Notes under the pieces: model-generated
Seen by the model: only the letters and a program-made list of their open reading frames with translations
What the model was told of the DNA's origin: nothing
Databases searched by the model: none
Assembly (NCBI GenBank): GCA_963716745.1
Contig: OY970320.1
Location: 1,527,865 to 1,591,864 of the forward strand
Length of the DNA stretch: 64,000 nt
Source of the DNA: an uncultured Gemmatimonadaceae bacterium
GTDB lineage: Bacteria; Gemmatimonadota; Gemmatimonadetes; Gemmatimonadales; Gemmatimonadaceae
Direction of reading: 5' to 3'
Program-made: the position numbers and the translations under genes
In this document: positions 9,968 through 61,672 of the stretch, one piece after another
Position numbering within the stretch: the first letter of the stretch is position 1
How the letters are laid out: the number at the start of each line of letters is the position of its first letter

Positions 9968-10061
9968 AACTACTTTGACAGGATTAACATGATCGACATC
10001 ATGATGGACAACGGGCGTCGTTCATCATGATGTCGATCATGTTAATCCTGTCAAAGCAGTT
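9968..10061. repeat. Family-1 palindromic element, copy A (about 38-bp arms, GACAGGATTAACATGAT core at the outer ends)
   Basis: cTTTGACAGGATTAACATGATCGACATCATGATG (9973-10006) pairs with CATCATGATGTCGATCATGTTAATCCTGTCAAAg (10023-10056). The stem extends with AACG/CGTT and flanking AAC/GTT. It lies between the ndh-like stop and the acs start. Confidence 0.85.
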
Positions 10062-12071: not shown

Positions 12072-12164
12072 ACGAACTGCTTGACAGGATTAACAAGATG
12101 GACAGGATGAACAACAAGCGTTGTTCATCCTGTCCATCTTGTTAATCCTGTCAAGCAGTTCGTT
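12071..12164. repeat. Family-1 palindromic element, copy B (perfect 45-bp arms, 4-nt loop)
   Basis: AACGAACTGCTTGACAGGATTAACAAGATGGACAGGATGAACAAC aagc GTTGTTCATCCTGTCCATCTTGTTAATCCTGTCAAGCAGTTCGTT. It starts at the last base of the acs stop codon and covers the last 14 nt of the convergent VKOR gene. Confidence 0.9.
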
Positions 12165-12576
12165 GAGATCGCAGATCCGCGATGGACGTCATGAGAATCC
12201 CGAGCATGATGCACGCCGACGTCACGCACCAGATGCAGATCGCGTGGATCACGAAGAGTTCGAGGTACGTGAGCCACATCGAGAACAGCACGCTCCAACC
12301 CGAGATCGCGACCATCATGTAGGAGATCGCGCGCGACTCGGAGCCGCGCTCGGAGAGTCCCGCGATCGCGAGCACGAAGAGCACGACGTATGTCGCGAGC
12401 CCCCATGCCGCCACCGGCAAGCCGAGGAAGGTGGCCCAGCGGCTCGTGTTCACCGTCTCGCACTCGCCCACCGAGCAGGCGAGCTCGCCGATCACCCCCA
12501 CCTTGTAGAGCGTGAGGTAGAGCGCGACGAACGCGCCCGCCAGCGCGAGGACGGCGATGACCTGCCGCGTCCTCAC
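12151..12576 (-). CDS. Vitamin K epoxide reductase (VKOR) family membrane protein
   Basis: 141 aa with 4 TM segments. It has loop Cys residues (ACSVGEC) and CIWC in the last helix. It is 4-nt coupled to the upstream DsbA-like gene. Confidence 0.75.
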   Translation of the reverse strand: MRTRQVIAVLALAGAFVALYLTLYKVGVIGELACSVGECETVNTSRWATFLGLPVAAWGLATYVVLFVLAIAGLSERGSESRAISYMMVAISGWSVLFSMWLTYLELFVIHAICIWCVTSACIMLGILMTSIADLRSQRTA

Positions 12577-13337
12577 GGCTTCTTGGCGGTCTTCGGTCCT
12601 GCGGGTGCCGCGGCGGGCGGCTGGGTCGCGGCGCTGTCCACGTACGATTTGAACTCATCGTAGCCGATCGCGCCCGCCACCTTCCTCCGCCCGATCACGA
12701 ACGTGGGCGTCTGCGAGACGCCAATGCGGTCGCCTTCCTTGCGGTTGCCGTAGATGCGCGTGAGGTGCTGCTGTTCCTCGAAGCACTTCTTCCAGTCGGC
12801 CACGTTCAGACCGATCTGCTTGGCGTACTCGGCGAAGAACTTGCCCGGGTTGTTCGTCGCCTCGGTGGACCACTCGGGCTGATTGAAGAAGAGCGCGTCA
12901 TGCATCTCCCAGAATTTCTTCTGGTCGTCGGCGCACGCCGCCGCGATGGATGCGCGCAGCGAGTTCTGGTGCTGCGGCAGCGGGAAATCGTAGTAGTGGT
13001 AGCTCACGAGACCGGCCTGCACGAGGCGGCGGCGCACGTCGGGCTCGGTGACGAGCGAGAACTGCCCGCACGCCGGACACTCGTAGTCCGCGAACTCCAG
13101 CACTTGCACGGGCGCGTTGGGATTGCCGAGCAGATAGCCCTGCGCCGCAGCCGCGGTGACGTCCACTTCCTGTACGGGCGCCGATTTGGGGCGGGAAGCG
13201 ACCGAGAGCAGCCATGCGCCGCCGGCGATGATGACGATCGCGATCAGGATCCAGAAGCCGCGCGAATTCTTCGCCGGCTTCTTCTTCTTCACCACTCCCG
13301 GTCGCTGTCCCTTTCCCTCTTTTCGTCCGGCTGCCAT
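12573..13337 (-). CDS. DsbA-family thiol:disulfide oxidoreductase (membrane-anchored)
   Basis: N-terminal TM segment (FWILIAIVIIAGGAWLL) and thioredoxin-fold active site YECPACGQF. Confidence 0.8.
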   Translation of the reverse strand: MAAGRKEGKGQRPGVVKKKKPAKNSRGFWILIAIVIIAGGAWLLSVASRPKSAPVQEVDVTAAAAQGYLLGNPNAPVQVLEFADYECPACGQFSLVTEPDVRRRLVQAGLVSYHYYDFPLPQHQNSLRASIAAACADDQKKFWEMHDALFFNQPEWSTEATNNPGKFFAEYAKQIGLNVADWKKCFEEQQHLTRIYGNRKEGDRIGVSQTPTFVIGRRKVAGAIGYDEFKSYVDSAATQPPAAAPAGPKTAKKP

Positions 13338-14032: not shown

Positions 14033-14064
14033 AAAAGCCCCTGCGTTCGCGCGGGGGCTTTGTG
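14033..14064 (+). terminator. Intrinsic terminator (9-bp GC stem, UUCG tetraloop, T-run)
   Basis: aaaaGCCCCTGCG-ttcg-CGCGGGGCtttgtg. The stem 14037-14045 pairs with 14050-14058, with one G-U pair. Confidence 0.7.
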
Positions 14065-14083
14065 CATCCCGTGGTCGGCGCGC

Positions 14084-14089
14084 TATACT
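14084..14089 (+). promoter_or_regulatory. -10-like hexamer TATACT, 7 nt upstream of the GTG at 14097
   Basis: ggcgcgcTATACTcagcagcGTGcac. Confidence 0.3.
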
Positions 14090-14096
14090 CAGCAGC

Positions 14097-14942
14097 GTGC
14101 ACTCCAACAGGAACCGGTATCGAATGACGGGACATGCCTCGGCTCGCGCGCACCGCTCGGCGGCGGCGCTAATTGCGGCGTTCGCCACGTTGGGGGCCGT
14201 CGGCGCCTGTGGCGGGCATGTCGCCGCCACCGATGAGACCCCGTCGCCCCATGAGGCGCACGCCGCGTGGAGCTACAGCGGAGCGAAGGGCCCCAAGCAC
14301 TGGGCCTCGCTCGACACGGCGTACAAGCTCTGTTCCGACAGCAATAACCAATCGCCGATCAATATCGACAGCGCCAAGCTGGTGGACGCCGAGAACATCG
14401 AGTTCCACTATGAGCCGAGCAAGATCAACATCGTGAACAACGGGCACACGATCGAGGTCGAGTACGAGCCGGGGAGCTACGTCACGCTCGTGGGCGTGCG
14501 CTACGATCTGGTGCAGTTCCACTTCCACATGCCAGGCGAGCACAAGACGAAGGGCAAGCTGCGCGACGGCGAGCTGCATCTCGTGCACAAGAGCGCCGAT
14601 GGCCATATCCTCGTCATCGGGGTGATCCTCTACCACACGCAGACCGACAATGCCGCGTTCGCGTCGGTGTGGGAGAACATCCCGAAGAAGCCGGGCGAGA
14701 TGCAGCATCTCAATGCGCAGACCAACGCGAGTCTGTTCCTGCCGGCCAGCCGCGCGACGTACCGCTACGACGGATCGCTCACGACCCCGCCGTGCACCGA
14801 GGGCGTGCTCTGGAACGTCATGGTCGACTCGGTGGCCATGTCGCAGGGCCAGATGCTCGACTTCATGCACATCGTTGGCGACAACTACCGGCCAGTGCAG
14901 CCGCTGGGCGGGCGGCCGCTGCTCAAGGACGCGACGCCCTAG
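14097..14942 (+). CDS. Alpha-class carbonic anhydrase, secreted
   Basis: WSYSGAKGPKHW, QSPINI, NNGHTIEV, QFHFHMPGEH, ELHLVHK, YRYDGSLTTPPCTEGV. Signal peptide/lipobox-like AAFATLGAVGAC. An alternative start is the ATG at 14124. Confidence 0.9.
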   Translation: MHSNRNRYRMTGHASARAHRSAAALIAAFATLGAVGACGGHVAATDETPSPHEAHAAWSYSGAKGPKHWASLDTAYKLCSDSNNQSPINIDSAKLVDAENIEFHYEPSKINIVNNGHTIEVEYEPGSYVTLVGVRYDLVQFHFHMPGEHKTKGKLRDGELHLVHKSADGHILVIGVILYHTQTDNAAFASVWENIPKKPGEMQHLNAQTNASLFLPASRATYRYDGSLTTPPCTEGVLWNVMVDSVAMSQGQMLDFMHIVGDNYRPVQPLGGRPLLKDATP

Positions 14943-24408: not shown

Positions 24409-24490
24409 CATGTGAATCATGTTAATCCTGTCCAATGCTCTTCCTAGAATCCGCGATAACTGCTTTGACAGGATTAACATGATTTACATG
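24409..24490. repeat. Family-1 palindromic element, copy C (24-bp arms, 34-nt spacer, GACAGG ends facing inward)
   Basis: CATGTGAATCATGTTAATCCTGTC (24409-24432) pairs with GACAGGATTAACATGATTTACATG (24467-24490), with 1 mismatch. The spacer contains CTAGAAT. Confidence 0.85.
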
Positions 24491-28447: not shown

Positions 28448-30199
<1,752 letters not shown>

Positions 30200-30320
30200 T
30201 CCGAAGGAGGACAGGTGGGGGTCCGCGGCCGCAACGAAGCGCGCGCGCCGCTCGCATCGGCGGGCGCGGCGCATAAGTTAACCGCGGTGGCATTCGGGCC
30301 ACGCGCAAGTTACCCAATCC

Positions 30321-41110: not shown

Positions 41111-41188
41111 CATCATGTGAATCATGTTAATCCTGTCAACGTAGTTTTTGAAAACTACTTTGACAGGATTAACATGATTCGCATGATT
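41111..41188. repeat. Family-1 palindromic element, copy D (26-bp arms plus inner stem)
   Basis: CATGTGAATCATGTTAATCCTGTCAA (41114-41139) pairs with TTGACAGGATTAACATGATTCGCATG (41160-41185), with 1 mismatch. The inner stem is GTAGTTT-ttga-AAACTAC. Confidence 0.85.
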
Positions 41189-41254
41189 GGGACTGCCCCG
41201 TTCCGCTCTGGAGTGCCGAGACCTACATTCAACTCGTTCCCCATCGGAGGCTCC

Positions 41255-41801
41255 ATGCAGAGATCCCGTCTCCTCGCGATAGTCGCCATCGCCGCGTGCG
41301 CCGCTCGTCGCCGCGGGCCAAGCGGTCGTCGCCGACACCGGCTCCGTCGCCCCCAATTTCTCGGCGCCAGGCGCGAACATGGCCGGGCTGATCCCGTCGG
41401 TGAGTCTCGCCGCGTACAAGGGCAAGACCGTCGTGCTCGCCTTCTTCTACAAGGCGCGGACCAAGGGCTGAACGATCCAAATGGAGGCGTACCGTGATCA
41501 GTACGCCACGCTCTTCAACAACGGCAAGAATGTCGTCGTCCTCGGCATCAGCGTCGATGCCGACACCACGCTGCAAAGCTGGGCGCACGACGCCAAGTTC
41601 CCGATGACGTTCGTCAGCGACACCGGCCACGTGATCGGCTCCGCGTACGGCGTGTACAGCGAGAAGAACGCGATGGACTCGCGCGTCGTTTTCGTGATCG
41701 CGCCGAATGGCAAGATCACCTACAAAGCGCCCTTCAATGTGATGTCGGCCGACGCCTACACGACGCTCGGCAACGAGGTGAAGAAGGCGTCTGGACCATA
41801 G
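41255..41801 (+). CDS. Peroxiredoxin (AhpC/TSA-BCP-like) lipoprotein with in-frame TGA at the peroxidatic Cys position (selenocysteine candidate); also one N-terminal frame break
   Basis: The signal/lipobox MQRSRLLAIVAIAAC starts at the ATG at 41255, preceded by GGAGG. The +1 frame from about 41303 reads PLVAAGQAVVADTGSVAPNFSAPG...YKGKTVVLAFFYKARTKG-TGA-TIQMEAYRDQY...VVVLGISVD...DSRVVFVIAPNGKI. The TGA is at 41469-41471. Confidence 0.65.
41486..41507 (+). promoter_or_regulatory. SECIS-like hairpin downstream of the in-frame UGA
   Basis: GGCGTAC-cgtgatca-GTACGCC is a perfect 7-bp stem with an 8-nt loop containing GU. The stem starts 14 nt after the UGA, and the loop starts 24 nt from the U of UGA. 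Confidence 0.45.
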
Positions 41802-41813
41802 TTCATCGTGCAT

Positions 41814-41911
41814 CGCGCATCGTGCCTCGTGCATCGGCCATCGTGACCGCTTCGAGCGGTCGCGATGCCCGAATCCCCCGCCGAGGCACGATGCACGAGG
41901 CACGATGCGCG
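41814..41911. repeat. Composite hairpin downstream of the peroxiredoxin gene
   Basis: CGCGCATCGTGCCTCGTGCATCG (41814-41836) pairs perfectly with CGATGCACGAGGCACGATGCGCG (41889-41911). The arms are made of CATCGTGC-type sub-repeats. The inner hairpin is GACCGC-ttcga-GCGGTC, and a T-run lies about 20 nt downstream. Confidence 0.75.
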
Positions 41912-41974: not shown

Positions 41975-43430
41975 ATGAAGACTCCCAGTCAGCCGATGTG
42001 GGCGGTCGCACCCGATGCGCCGATGGATGCGCGCACGACGCTCATCCAGCTGTACTGGGCGGCGATCCGATCGGCGGCGCCGGCGCCCGCGTTGCGCGCG
42101 GCGCTCGACAAGATCCCGCCGGAGAAGGAGCGCCGCCGCGTCTGGATCTTCGCGGTGGGCAAGGCCGCGAACCCGATGGCGATCGCCGCGGTGGAATGGC
42201 TCAAGGAGCACGGCGCCGAGCCGGCCGGTGGCGTCATCGTCGCGCCGCGACAGGTGCCCACGCCGCATGCGAGTCTCGAGATGATCGTCGGTGACCATCC
42301 GCAGCCCGGGCTTCGTTCGCTCACGGCCGCGCGCATGATCGAGAATGACCGCGGCCAGAGTGCGCCCCGAGGACGACGCGTGGGTGCTGCTCTCCGGCGG
42401 CTCCACGAGCCTCATAGCCGCGCCGGACGCGGCGCTCAAACCAGAAGAGATGGTGCAGCTCTTCGAGTTGCTGCACGGCTCCGGTCTCGACATCGCGACG
42501 ATGAATCTCATCCGCAAACGCTTCACGCGATGGGGCGCGGGCCGTCTCGCCGCCGCGCTCAAGGCGCACAAGGTGCGCAATTTCATCATCTCGGATGTCG
42601 TGGGCGATGACCTCGCGGCGATCGGCTCCGGTCCGTGCGTCCCGGACCCGAGCACGGCGAGCCAGGTACGTTCGATCCTCGTGGCATACAAGCTTTGGGA
42701 CCTCGTGCCGATCACGCTGCGCCGCTACCTGCACGCGGTCGAACGCGATCCGGGTCTCGAGACGCCGAAGGCCGGCGATCCCGTGTTCGAGAACGTCGAG
42801 CGCCGCATCATCGCGAGCAACCGCACCGCACTCGACGCGATCGCATCGAAGGCGAAGGAGCTCGGCTACGATCCGCGCATCATGAGCACCACGCTCTCCG
42901 GCGACGCGGCTTCCGCCGGCAAGCGCGTGGCCGCGTCGCTGGCCGGCACCTGCGGGTCCGCGACGCCCACCATCGCCGGCCGCGCCGGCCGTGCGTGCCT
43001 CATCTGGGGCGGCGAGACCACGGTGGCCCTTCGCGAAGGACCGCACGGCGCTGGCGGCCGTTGTCAGGAGCTCGCGCTCTCCGCCGCGCGCGAGCTCGCG
43101 CAGGTGAAGAGCGCGCGCGGCTCCACGCTCCTCGCGTGCGGCACCAATGGCCGCGACGGCGCCACCGACGCCGCCGGCGCGGTGGTGAATCGCGAGACAT
43201 GGAACGACATCGCGCGCGCCGGACGCGATCCCGAGAAGGATCTCGCCGGACACGATTCATACCCGTCGCTCGACGCGGCCGGCGCCCTGCTCCGCACCGA
43301 TCTCACCTCCACGAACGTCATGGATGTCGTGATCGGCGTCTGCGGCCCGCCCACCGCCGAGATGATGGAGCGGAAGACACCCGGTGCGCTCGCCCGGATC
43401 TCGGGTAGCTTTAGGCGGATCACCCAGTAA
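41975..43430 (+). CDS. Glycerate 2-kinase / hydroxypyruvate reductase-like (DUF4147 + MOFRL), one frame break
   Basis: VWIFAVGKAANPMA and VGDHPQPG are in the first frame. The +1 frame carries WVLLSGGSTSL, ISDVVGDDLAAIGSGP, LIWGGETTV, GGRCQELALSAA, GTNGRDGATDAAGA. The join is near 42345. Confidence 0.75.
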
Positions 43431-44384: not shown

Positions 44385-45425
44385 AGCCGTCGAGCGTTCG
44401 CTGGCCCGCGGAGTGGGAGCCGCACACGGCGACGTGGTTGAGCTGGCCGCACAACAAAGAGGATTGGCCCGGAAAGTTCGCGCCGATCCCGTGGGTGTAC
44501 GTCGAGATCGTGCGCGCGCTGCACACGCACGAGCGGGTGGAGATCCTGTGTCACAGCGCCGCGGTGAAGCGCAGCGCCGAGTCGGCGCTCAAGGCGCACG
44601 GTGTGGATCTCGCGCGGGTGGGCCGGCACATCGTGCCGAGCGACCGCGTGTGGACGCGCGACTCCGGCCCGACCGGAGTGCTCGACAGCGGCGGCGCGCT
44701 GCAGTGGGCCGGCTGGCGGTTCAACGGCTGGGCGAAGTACAAGAACTTCAAGGAGGATGTGAAAGTCGGCGCCGCGATCGCGAAGCTGAGCGGCGCGCCG
44801 CTCACCGCCGCCGTGCGCGATGACACGGGCAAGCCGCTCGTGCTCGAGGGCGGCGGCATCGAGACCGATGGTGCGGGCACGATGCTCGTCACCGAGGAGT
44901 GGCTGCTGTCCAAGGTGCAGGTGCGGAATCCCGGCATGGACCGCGCAGGCGTACGAGCGCGCGTTCGCGCAGTGGCTGGGCATCAAGCGCACGGTCTGGC
45001 TGGGTGAAGGCTGCGTCGGCGACGACACGCACGGGCATGTGGACGACATCGCGCGGTTCGCGGACGCGCACACCGTTGCGCTCGCGTACGAGCCCGACCC
45101 GCGCGACGAGAATCATGCGCGGAGCAAGGACAACGCACGGAGGCTCGAACTCGCGGGGGGACTGCGCGTCGTGAAGCTGCCGTACCCGCGCGCGGTGGTC
45201 ATGGATGGCCAGCGGCTGCCGGCGAGCTACGCGAACTTCTACATCGCGAACGGAGTGGTGCTGGTGCCCACGTTCAACGATCCCAACGACCGCGCCGCGC
45301 TGAATATTCTCGCGCAACTATTCCCGGGGCGAGAGGTAGTCGGGATCCACGCGGGGGATTTAGTGTGGGGACTGGGGACGATCCACTGCCTGACCCAGCA
45401 GCAGCCGGCGGCTAAGCGCCGCTAA
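44381..45425 (+). CDS. aguA: Agmatine deiminase, one frame break
   Basis: The GTG at 44381 overlaps the aguB stop. WPAEWEPHTATWLSWPH, VWTRDSGP, LEGGGIETDGAGT. The +1 frame carries DDTHGHVDDIARF, ASYANFYIANG, GLGTIHCLTQQQP. The join is near 44940. Confidence 0.85.
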
Positions 45426-55884: not shown

Positions 55885-59028
<3,144 letters not shown>

Positions 59029-59113
59029 GCGCGACCTCGTTGCACCGGTATACCCGGGAAGTCATTGCCTGCTCCATGACACTACGACGCGGTGCGCCGC
59101 GGAGTGTCGCGGC

Positions 59114-61456
<2,343 letters not shown>

Positions 61457-61539
61457 CGCGGAGTCCTCGGTAGAGCAGTGTCCAGCGTGAAGATAGAGGC
61501 GGCATGCCCACCCTGAAAGGCGCGTGTGGGCCTTGGTAC

Positions 61540-61672
61540 CGCTGAAGGGGCGCGTTTGGCAACGGAGCGTATGGTACCACAGGGCGTCCGTAGCCACGAC
61601 GCACTGTTCTCGTCGTGCCAATTCACGCCGGGTGGTACCATACGCTCCGTTGCCAGACGCGCCGTTTCAGCG
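61540..61672. repeat. Composite hairpin in a divergent promoter region
   Basis: CGCTGAAGGGGCGCGTTTGGCAACGGAGCGTATGGTACCAC pairs with GTGGTACCATACGCTCCGTTGCCAGACGCGCCGTTTCAGCG (41-nt arms, 3 mismatches). The 51-nt spacer has an inner hairpin CACGACG/CGTCGTG. Confidence 0.8.

Follow-up and report, generated by a model that had tools for sequence, protein, structure and literature searches.

A predicted selenocysteine-containing peroxiredoxin with a conserved in-frame TGA and a putative SECIS element in Gemmatimonadaceae

A 64,000-nucleotide (nt) stretch of DNA from an uncultured Gemmatimonadaceae bacterium (assembly GCA_963716745.1, contig OY970320.1, positions 1,527,865 to 1,591,864; this whole stretch is called the window) carries, at 41255-41801, a peroxiredoxin gene with an in-frame TGA at the codon of the peroxidatic cysteine (Cys). 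In all likelihood, this region encodes one polypeptide of about 181 amino acids (aa), composed of a signal peptide and a compact Bcp/AhpE-like peroxiredoxin domain with selenocysteine (Sec) at the catalytic position, and the family to which it belongs is very probably a genuine selenoprotein family. The pairing of Sec with Cys at one site, the TGA-containing homologues in many organisms and a hairpin of the bacterial Sec insertion sequence (bSECIS) type together fit the accepted bioinformatic criteria for a selenoprotein.

Peroxiredoxin gene with a TGA at the peroxidatic codon

The TGA at 41469-41471 (+) lies in frame within the AhpC/TSA peroxiredoxin domain; the frame around it reads ...VVLAFFYKARTKG-TGA-TIQMEAYRDQY... 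(in a longer translation, ...GKTVVLAFFYKARTKG-TGA-TIQMEAYRDQYATLF...) and continues for 109 further codons to the TAG at 41799-41801. When the TGA was read as Cys, the translation matched the Pfam family AhpC-TSA (PF00578) with E=2.4e-27 and 95.7 bits against a cut-off of 26. In the phmmer alignments to the Bcp structures 2ywn (E=3.8e-15) and 2cx3, the TGA fell on the position of the peroxidatic Cys, and 3hjp carries a Ser at the position aligned with it. The codons of the active-site Thr (41460-41462) and Arg (41682-41684) of peroxiredoxins are both retained. These results bore out the original prediction that the TGA sits on the catalytic Cys and that homology continues beyond it in the same frame. 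Further, a codon-wise comparison that spanned codons -24 to +34 showed conserved amino acids and variable synonymous sites on both sides of the TGA in one frame, and the N-terminal open reading frame (ORF) is in frame with the TGA in all orthologues.

Related loci were gathered with the peptide patterns AYRDQYA[TK] and FPMTFVSD in two scans, one of metagenome contigs and one of species-representative genomes, and the best 80 loci were taken from each; Sec-type relatives with another motif would escape these patterns. At least 545 metagenome contigs and at least 554 species-representative genomes carry a relative. Among all fetched loci, the codon at the catalytic position was TGA in 160 of 165 and TGC or TGT in the other five, so the orthologues, whose codon the original prediction had proposed to check, are not all of the TGC kind. 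The TGA loci come from Illumina as well as long-read assemblies of many studies, and the named genomes are nearly all metagenome-assembled genomes (MAGs) of Gemmatimonadaceae from soil surveys such as MFD and SMAG; the window DNA itself is 93-95% identical to two MFD MAGs. Long contigs bear the TGA-type gene in the MAGs CAVSYH01 (MFD05521.bin.2.4), CAVTUD01 (MFD04967.bin.2.109), CAVRWG01 (MFD06229.bin.2.4, a 2.9-Mb contig) and JBJMOW01 (a 1.58-Mb contig), and two MAGs labelled G. aurantiaca (L098 and L106) also have it, whereas L115, L134 and Gemmatirosa are examples of Gemmatimonadaceae with Cys-type genes only. The gene is thus nearly universal in a large Gemmatimonadaceae clade and is no one-off. 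An exported Sec protein had been expected to be unusual in such a genome: the predicted combination of export and Sec does belong to a new lineage, but it is not rare there.

In the protein databases, this gene appears either as a 'peroxiredoxin' fragment of about 105 aa or at full length, but then with a Trp that is spurious. Among the 120 best matches listed, the close relatives (72-91% identity) are all 103-106-aa fragments that start at the Met three codons past the TGA, and the C-terminal part of the window gene likewise corresponds to a separate 105-106-aa 'peroxiredoxin' ORF from the ATG at 41481. Full-length relatives (190-200 aa) among the same matches are only 45-60% identical, those with a source name being Gemmatimonadota, and the more distant full-length relatives all read FFPxARTxGC, that is, with Cys. 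On the contigs of two of the fragments, the gene order is a Zn-dependent alcohol dehydrogenase, an 82-aa ORF ending in TGA, 9 nt, a 105-aa ORF and a DUF4147/MOFRL glycerate kinase. Three full-length database relatives show W (P0024 and P0052) or L (P0026) at the Sec position. The DNA of P0024 (L169, 259-840) has TGA, and its W is therefore an artefact of gene calling with code 4 on a short contig.

In a rough neighbour-joining tree, the Cys forms were basal and one big clade was nearly all Sec-type, the exceptions being a few Cys forms inside it (P0021, P0042/P0045 and L134). As far as this tree goes, it suggests one Cys-to-Sec conversion followed by occasional reversions.

Two loci at the edges of this distribution are recorded here. 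A 1569-bp contig (L140, JACMML010000384.1) holds a TGA-type locus in a MAG labelled Phycisphaerae, next to a CcdA neighbour of Gemmatimonadaceae type, and it is probably mis-binned. Plasmid 1 of Gemmatirosa kalamazoonensis (L168, NZ_CP007129.1, 469515-470984), a 1.1-Mb megaplasmid of a cultured member of the Gemmatimonadaceae, carries a more distant, exported Cys-type paralogue, FYPKDRTSGCTAELTKFRDEYASLF, with a Thr-rich linker after the signal peptide.

Hairpin downstream of the TGA

Bacterial SECIS elements located directly after the UGA are textbook knowledge. In the window gene, a 5' arm GGCGTAC (41486-41492), a loop CGTGATCA (41493-41500) and a 3' arm GTACGCC (41501-41507) follow the TGA, with 14 nt between UGA and hairpin and 21 nt between UGA and loop. 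According to the published bSECIS model (PMC13188914), the loop has 3-9 nt and a G in its first two positions (G or U being common after it), the stem has 4-16 bp, the loop lies 16-37 nt from the UGA, and the minimum free energy (MFE) is at most -7.5 kcal/mol. The hairpin agrees with all four constraints, with its 8-nt loop beginning C-G-U, 7 bp, 21 nt and -10.3 kcal/mol. The original prediction had described a perfect 7-bp hairpin 14 nt after the TGA with GU in the loop, at a spacing within the range of bacterial SECIS elements; the hairpin was exactly as described, and the spacing agrees with the model.

The coding sequence around the hairpin is nearly frozen at the nucleotide level. In 76 unique TGA-type sequences, synonymous entropy was 0 at codons +6 to +13 (GCG TAC CGT GAT CAG TAC GCC ACG) and below 0.65 bits at codons +3 to +17, compared with about 1-1.6 bits at four-fold codons up- and downstream of the element. 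Among the frozen codons are some that the gene otherwise uses rarely, such as CGT (76/76), GAT (74/76) and CAA (73/76). When the genome loci were added, the 22-mer of the hairpin was identical in 131 of 136 unique sequences, and its variants either changed the loop (two cases of GAT to GAC and one of CGT to CGG) or lost the outermost pair (two cases of GAG to GAA). The proteins encoded by the TGA-type genes are 56-100% identical, and the median nucleotide identity was 0.956 in the 45-nt element vs. 0.692 in the flanking coding sequence. In contrast, the same synonymous sites are variable in the five Cys-type loci (GAC, terminal GCG, TAT...TAT and GCT TAT CGC), where the stem is weaker, at -8.6 to -2 kcal/mol. 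Conservation of the hairpin, a further check proposed with the original prediction, was thus found where the TGA is, and the hairpin degrades at synonymous sites in the Cys-type genes.

RNAalifold on the 136 unique sequences gave the 7-bp helix as the sole consensus helix, and it gave no lower stem or pairing that would explain the wider frozen region beyond that helix. Searches with Rfam, at the gathering threshold over the whole window and at E<=10 on 41430-41570, returned no SECIS-type family; the only match, to mir-2290 on the opposite strand, was put down to chance. Hairpins of a similar form (loop [CT]GTGA[TC]C[AG], at least 5 bp) past other in-frame TGAs in about 1.6 Mb were chance matches only, and a scan for other TGA-interrupted ORFs with high GC3 (G+C content at third codon positions) found only the peroxiredoxin gene, its antisense strand and gene junctions.

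Competing explanations for the TGA and the frame break

A series of observations weighs against the reading as a selenoprotein. The folding energy of the hairpin is ordinary: the MFE of the 62-nt stretch was -14.3 kcal/mol (z = -0.81) and 43 of 200 shuffled sequences folded equally well, so the significance of the hairpin comes from its conservation and not from thermodynamic stability. The peptide AYRDQYA, whose codons form the hairpin, is also present in the Cys forms, with a weaker hairpin of -5 to -8.6 kcal/mol there, and the patterns used for collecting the loci overlap the hairpin, which makes the amino-acid invariance in this place partly a matter of construction, but not the codon invariance. 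Compensatory covariation was absent, the helix being invariant, and the helix is therefore supported by conservation and by its fit to the model rather than by covariation. ARAGORN found no tRNA-Sec in the 64-kb window and 135 loci, and tblastn with the E. coli SelA, SelB and SelD proteins (NC_000913) gave no match in the window and all fetched loci; these searches covered the window plus about 1.56 Mb of flanking sequence, that is, one neighbourhood sampled many times and not a genome. Pfam revealed no sel genes among 28 window ORFs, and an E. coli SelA search of plasmids (154 records) showed no Gemmatirosa among the 40 matches listed or the top ten genera. The literature searched contained no report of a Sec trait in Gemmatimonadota/Gemmatimonadetes. 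The frame break in the window copy, treated below, would also count here if it were a real mutation, which we regard as unlikely.

Whether the TGA separates two genes can be judged from the initiation signals. Of 142 unique orthologues, 101 have GGAG or GAGG ahead of the upstream start, and not one has a Shine-Dalgarno-like motif ahead of the internal ATG. It could be assumed that translation stops at the TGA, yielding an exported peptide of about 80 aa, and re-initiates at the ATG at 41481 to yield a cytoplasmic fragment of 106 aa, and both the 103-106-aa 'peroxiredoxin' ORF in many database clusters and the ATG that lies 9 nt past the TGA in most genes agree with that. However, the internal Met belongs to a conserved motif of the full-length Cys-type proteins (CTVQMK) and is replaced by Leu in L047 and Thr in L059, indicating a residue of the enzyme rather than a restart codon. 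The fragment would, moreover, miss the first beta-strands of the fold together with the Thr and the catalytic residue, and the stop coincides exactly with the catalytic codon in 160 loci, all of which makes a pair of genes highly improbable. A sequencing error or an ordinary nonsense mutation in a true TGC or TGT codon is effectively refuted: the assembly is prone to indels, but its errors in the window are indels and not substitutions, the TGA recurs in 160 independent loci from both Illumina and long-read data, and only TGA-type genes show the frozen synonymous sites downstream.

Another possibility is that the UGA is recoded, but not as Sec, by a suppressor or allo-tRNA, by hairpin-stimulated near-cognate read-through (Cys, Trp, Gly or Ser) or by a Cys-tRNA(Sec). 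No Sec machinery was found in the sequence covered, and the base after the UGA at the Sec position is always A, which is not the strongest termination context; both points suit such recoding. Nevertheless, we consider it quite improbable. The site is that of the catalytic Cys and the sole alternative codons are those of Cys, which is the classic Sec/Cys signature, and the loop, spacing and energy of the downstream element all conform to the SelB-type bSECIS model. TGA also terminates 67 of the 142 TGA-type genes, thus even the same mRNAs, and ends 24 of 40 high-GC3 ORFs in the window; since the UGA is a normal stop in these organisms, it must be decoded in a site-specific manner at the catalytic position. 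An enzyme with Trp or Gly at its peroxidatic site would be inactive, but purifying selection acts on the whole domain, and the 'W' of the database entries P0024 and P0052 is the code-4 artefact described above.

The window copy has a defect of its own. The ATG at 41255 and the TGA do not share a reading frame, and the alignment to the intact L089, L090 and L001 located one extra base at about 41296-41298 (GCG-T-GCG). After its removal, the N-terminus reads MQRSRLLAIVAIAAAPLVAAGQA/VVADTG..., without Cys (corrected sequence ...AIAAAPLVAAGQA). Two more breaks relative to L002 were found in the glycerate kinase gene (DUF4147/MOFRL, about 42343-42354) and in the PAD_porph deiminase gene (about 44947-44949), so that, with the peroxiredoxin break, a stretch of 3.7 kb contains three, against none in the remaining 16 kb or so of the syntenic region. 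It could be supposed that the family is a genuine selenoprotein family while the window copy is a real pseudogene, in which the extra base uncouples the signal peptide from the enzyme. This would account for the break that is present in the sequence, and the closest MAG (L085/L088) is likewise disrupted in the same 60-nt stretch. However, no damage is seen in the remainder of the gene, which encodes the same C-terminal protein as L088 (100% identity); the other two window breaks lie in housekeeping genes. The breaks of the sister MAG are not those of the window (they lie in aconitase, Band_7 and GlyK), and its several small indels in the signal-peptide stretch are unlike the one of the window. 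This pattern is that of long-read consensus errors, and L089 (93.5% nucleotide identity) and L090 are intact. A pseudogene is therefore an unlikely, if not negligible, explanation; the frame break is most likely an assembly indel and not biology, and the cluster of breaks probably stems from locally low coverage or from indel errors of this long-read MAG.

The same alignment decided how the N-terminus is to be read. The original prediction had noted a frame break near 41303 as a sign of imperfect sequence and had described the product as an exported, lipobox-bearing protein. The break is indeed present in this sequence, consists of one extra base, lies slightly upstream of that place and is not evidence against the gene. 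The lipobox, in contrast, had to be given up: its Cys codon exists solely in the reading that carries the ATG frame on beyond the inserted base, and the close orthologues have no Cys there, the signal peptides of L089, L090, L001 and L002 being Cys-free with A-x-A-type ends. Predicted export was the part that stood, since 92 of 101 orthologues have N-termini resembling type-I signal peptides (a basic N-terminus, a hydrophobic core and typically an AQA or AQQ end). Counted irrespective of any lipobox context, a Cys occurs somewhere in the N-terminal part of 22 of 101 family members.

Enzyme type, locus and known systems

Read through its TGA as a selenoprotein gene, the locus most likely encodes an exported 1-Sec Bcp/AhpE-like peroxiredoxin, with export and peroxidase chemistry predicted from the sequence. 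In 154 of 155 cases, the mature Sec-type protein is without any Cys, and Cys-type relatives have exactly one; lacking a resolving Cys, these enzymes are expected to work by a 1-Sec/1-Cys mechanism. For P0021, a Cys-type relative that falls within the Sec clade, AlphaFold2 gave a confident model (pLDDT 88.4, pTM 0.80) with the catalytic Cys80 at the start of helix 78-89, and the best Foldseek matches of this model were Bcp4 (3hjp; E=6e-14, template-modelling (TM) score 0.83) and AhpE (1xxu/1xvw; TM score 0.84-0.85). The protein scored 65 bits vs. a cut-off of 270 with the NCBIfam model of PrxU (NF040737) and 71.8 bits vs. 140 with the E. coli-type Bcp model PRK09437, and no NCBIfam model reached its cut-off. 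An orthologue of PrxU was thus ruled out, and of the parallel drawn in the original prediction, what holds is that Sec peroxiredoxins are known.

The active-site motif PxxxTxxC has changed in one position. Its Thr is kept in 139 of 140 Sec-type proteins and the Arg is invariant (R68 in A1), whereas the Pro, residue -7 from the Sec or Cys, survives in just three of the 140. The other 137 have F (75), Y (42), I (15), V (3) or A (2) there, while every Cys-type relative examined has kept the Pro. In the window gene, this residue is a Tyr (codon TAC, 41448-41450).

In the course of events that we infer, the hairpin 14 nt downstream of the UGA, with its loop at 21 nt, would recruit SelB-GTP-Sec-tRNA(Sec) during UGA decoding, and Sec would be inserted instead of termination. 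The pre-protein would then be exported via the Sec translocon and cleaved by signal peptidase I after A-x-A, and its selenolate would reduce peroxides in the cell envelope as a 1-Sec enzyme. Because the mature protein has no other Cys, an external thiol reductant would be needed to recycle the selenenic acid, plausibly a TlpA-like thioredoxin fed by CcdA/DsbD. Genes for CcdA and an exported TlpA-like thioredoxin adjoin the peroxiredoxin gene in 18 loci (about 11%; listed in Table 1), as part of a convergent minus-strand operon at about +600 to +4500 from the Sec codon that comprises one or two HEAT-repeat proteins, CcdA/DsbD_TM and the exported TlpA-like thioredoxin (EFWATWCxNC). This operon is a plausible candidate for the envelope reductant route. 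Neighbourhood clustering of the loci revealed no universal neighbour gene; in the window, the Zn-dependent alcohol dehydrogenase lies upstream and the glycerate kinase downstream, and the CcdA operon is absent there.

Recognition of this gene would correct the annotation in hundreds of MAGs and would flag the Gemmatimonadaceae, a major and largely aerobic soil lineage that is not discussed as a selenium user in the selenoprotein literature searched, as likely selenium users. Within a single family, it would also offer a natural series of Sec and Cys forms in which the Pro is lost along with the gain of Sec, and in which one can ask what Sec buys a peroxiredoxin, and it would be a clear example of how a SECIS can arise from coding sequence already in place. 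A more tentative proposal, which we hold to be possible but rather doubtful, is that the Gemmatimonadaceae keep the whole Sec apparatus across hundreds of species mainly for one exported 1-Sec peroxiredoxin, that the SECIS element arose by exaptation of a hairpin which the codons of AYRDQYA already harboured in latent form, and that the gain of Sec relaxed the need for the active-site Pro (P to F/Y/I). If so, the protein would be among the most widespread soil selenoproteins, and envelope peroxide defence would be tied to selenium availability.

Repetitive DNA flanks the gene on both sides. Upstream, a dispersed AT-rich palindromic repeat occurs at 41112-41187 and also at 9975-10054, 12081-12154 and 24410-24489 of the window, always as an inverted pair of the core ATGTTAATCCTGTCAA, which has 13 matches at these four sites vs. 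0.03 expected in this genome of 68% GC. In the copy at 41112-41187, the arms measure 37 nt with 95% complementarity, and both strands contain promoter-like hexamers, TTGACA-16-CATGAT (on the + strand at 41160-41187), 68 nt upstream of the peroxiredoxin start. The repeat could be an element like repetitive extragenic palindromes (REP) or miniature inverted-repeat transposable elements, a bidirectional terminator or a promoter cassette. Directly past the peroxiredoxin stop, 41797-41843 and 41882-41911 hold 26-30-nt inverted repeats of CATCGTGC-like units, 81-92% complementary and without a T-run, and L001 has another repetitive stretch, CCATTCGACCAT..., at this place; they may form a lineage-specific REP-like terminator region. 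Elsewhere, the window encodes a VKOR homologue (12154-12654, -), a eukaryotic-type (alpha) carbonic anhydrase (14034-14939, +), a SulP/STAS transporter (28451-30277, -) and two tandem Ser/Thr kinases with TPR repeats (55888-61666, -), none of which is selenium-related.

Table 1. Features of the peroxiredoxin locus in the window, and the loci with an adjoining CcdA/TlpA-like operon
Feature	Position	Strand	Remarks
Dispersed AT-rich palindromic repeat copy	41112..41187	.	Between the stop of the Zn-dependent alcohol dehydrogenase gene (41100) and the peroxiredoxin start; membership in the peroxiredoxin locus uncertain
Shine-Dalgarno sequence GGAGG	41246..41250	+	4 nt before ATG 41255; context CGGAGGnnCCATG also in L001, L002, L088 and L089
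Start codon and type-I (A-x-A) signal peptide	41255..41324	+	Corrected reading MQRSRLLAIVAIAAAPLVAAGQA/VV
Frame break, one extra base	41296..41298	+	Alignment with L088, L089, L090 and L001
N-terminal mature peroxiredoxin part, including the (P)xxxTxxU motif	41325..41468	+	YKARTKG: Tyr instead of the usual Pro
In-frame TGA, predicted Sec codon at the peroxidatic position	41469..41471	+	Orthologue and structure alignments
C-terminal peroxiredoxin part, with Arg 41682-41684 and stop TAG 41799-41801	41472..41801	+	
Constrained RNA element, putative SECIS, about 45 nt, codons +3 to +17	41478..41522	+	Synonymous sites nearly frozen
SECIS core hairpin (putative), 7-bp stem GGCGUAC/GUACGCC, 8-nt loop CGUGAUCA (G2, U3)	41486..41507	+	MFE -10.3 kcal/mol; alifold
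Loci with the operon			L057, L062, L077, L078, L105, L125, L126, L135, L138, L140, L144, L145, L147, L150, L153, L155, L161, L082

Peroxiredoxins with a TxxU motif are a selenoprotein family verified by experiment, of which 12 members with five independent Cys-to-Sec conversions were counted in 2006 and 91 members in 78 organisms in 2016 (PMC1794560, PMC5029168, PMC13188914). Relative to these known Sec peroxiredoxins, the conversion in the present family is probably an independent one. Similar to PrxU of Eubacterium acidaminophilum (NF040737), the window gene has an AhpC/TSA fold, a UGA for the peroxidatic Cys of (P)xxxTxxC, a SECIS hairpin in the coding sequence right after the UGA, and Cys homologues. 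It differs from PrxU in being short and Bcp/AhpE-like, in its signal peptide, in the lack of any other Cys and in a motif Pro that is usually F, Y or I. The selenoprotein-rich organisms surveyed earlier were dominated by anaerobes (PMC1794560), whereas the window gene is found in soil MAGs of Gemmatimonadaceae.

The best matches in both sequence and structure are the 1-Cys peroxiredoxins of the Bcp/PrxQ and AhpE groups, namely S. solfataricus Bcp4 (3hjp), the S. tokodaii (2ywn) and A. pernix (2cx3) proteins and M. tuberculosis AhpE (1xxu/1xvw). Shared with them are the compact domain of about 155 aa, the Thr, catalytic residue and Arg at the same positions, and the lack of a resolving Cys at +5. 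Bcp/PrxQ and AhpE enzymes are, so far as is known, cytoplasmic and use Cys, while the window protein has a predicted Sec and an export signal, and it stays below the cut-off of PRK09437. Cell-envelope peroxiredoxins that are reduced via DsbD/CcdA-type transporters do exist, for example Caulobacter PprX with ScsB, and they also use Cys. Like them, the window protein would be an exported peroxiredoxin in need of reducing power across the membrane, and a CcdA/TlpA-like operon is at hand in 18 loci; here, however, the operon is convergent, present in about 11% of the loci and not beside the window gene, and the partner is only a candidate. The Prx-like thiol:disulfide oxidoreductase selenoproteins (UxxC/UxxU) and the UxxS proteins of cd02970 resemble the window protein in their PF00578-related thioredoxin fold and in having been predicted by comparative genomics, but their Sec lies in a redox motif, while here the motif is TxxU-T-[IV]-Q without a partner Cys or Ser.

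Compared with the SECIS elements of E. coli fdhF and fdnG and with the bSECIS consensus, the window element is likewise an in-ORF stem-loop just 3' of the UGA, with a small apical loop in which G is followed by U. It has no sequence similarity to the fdhF/fdnG elements and no evident bulged U, its 8-nt loop is larger than the commonest N(0-1)G[G/U]N... pattern, its constraint (about 45 nt) reaches past the hairpin without predicted pairing, and it matches no Rfam family. Since Sec peroxiredoxins and bacterial SECIS elements are well established, the mechanism is not new; what is new is the lineage and its soil habitat, the export signal, the 1-Sec Bcp/AhpE-like form with its lost Pro, and the prevalence.

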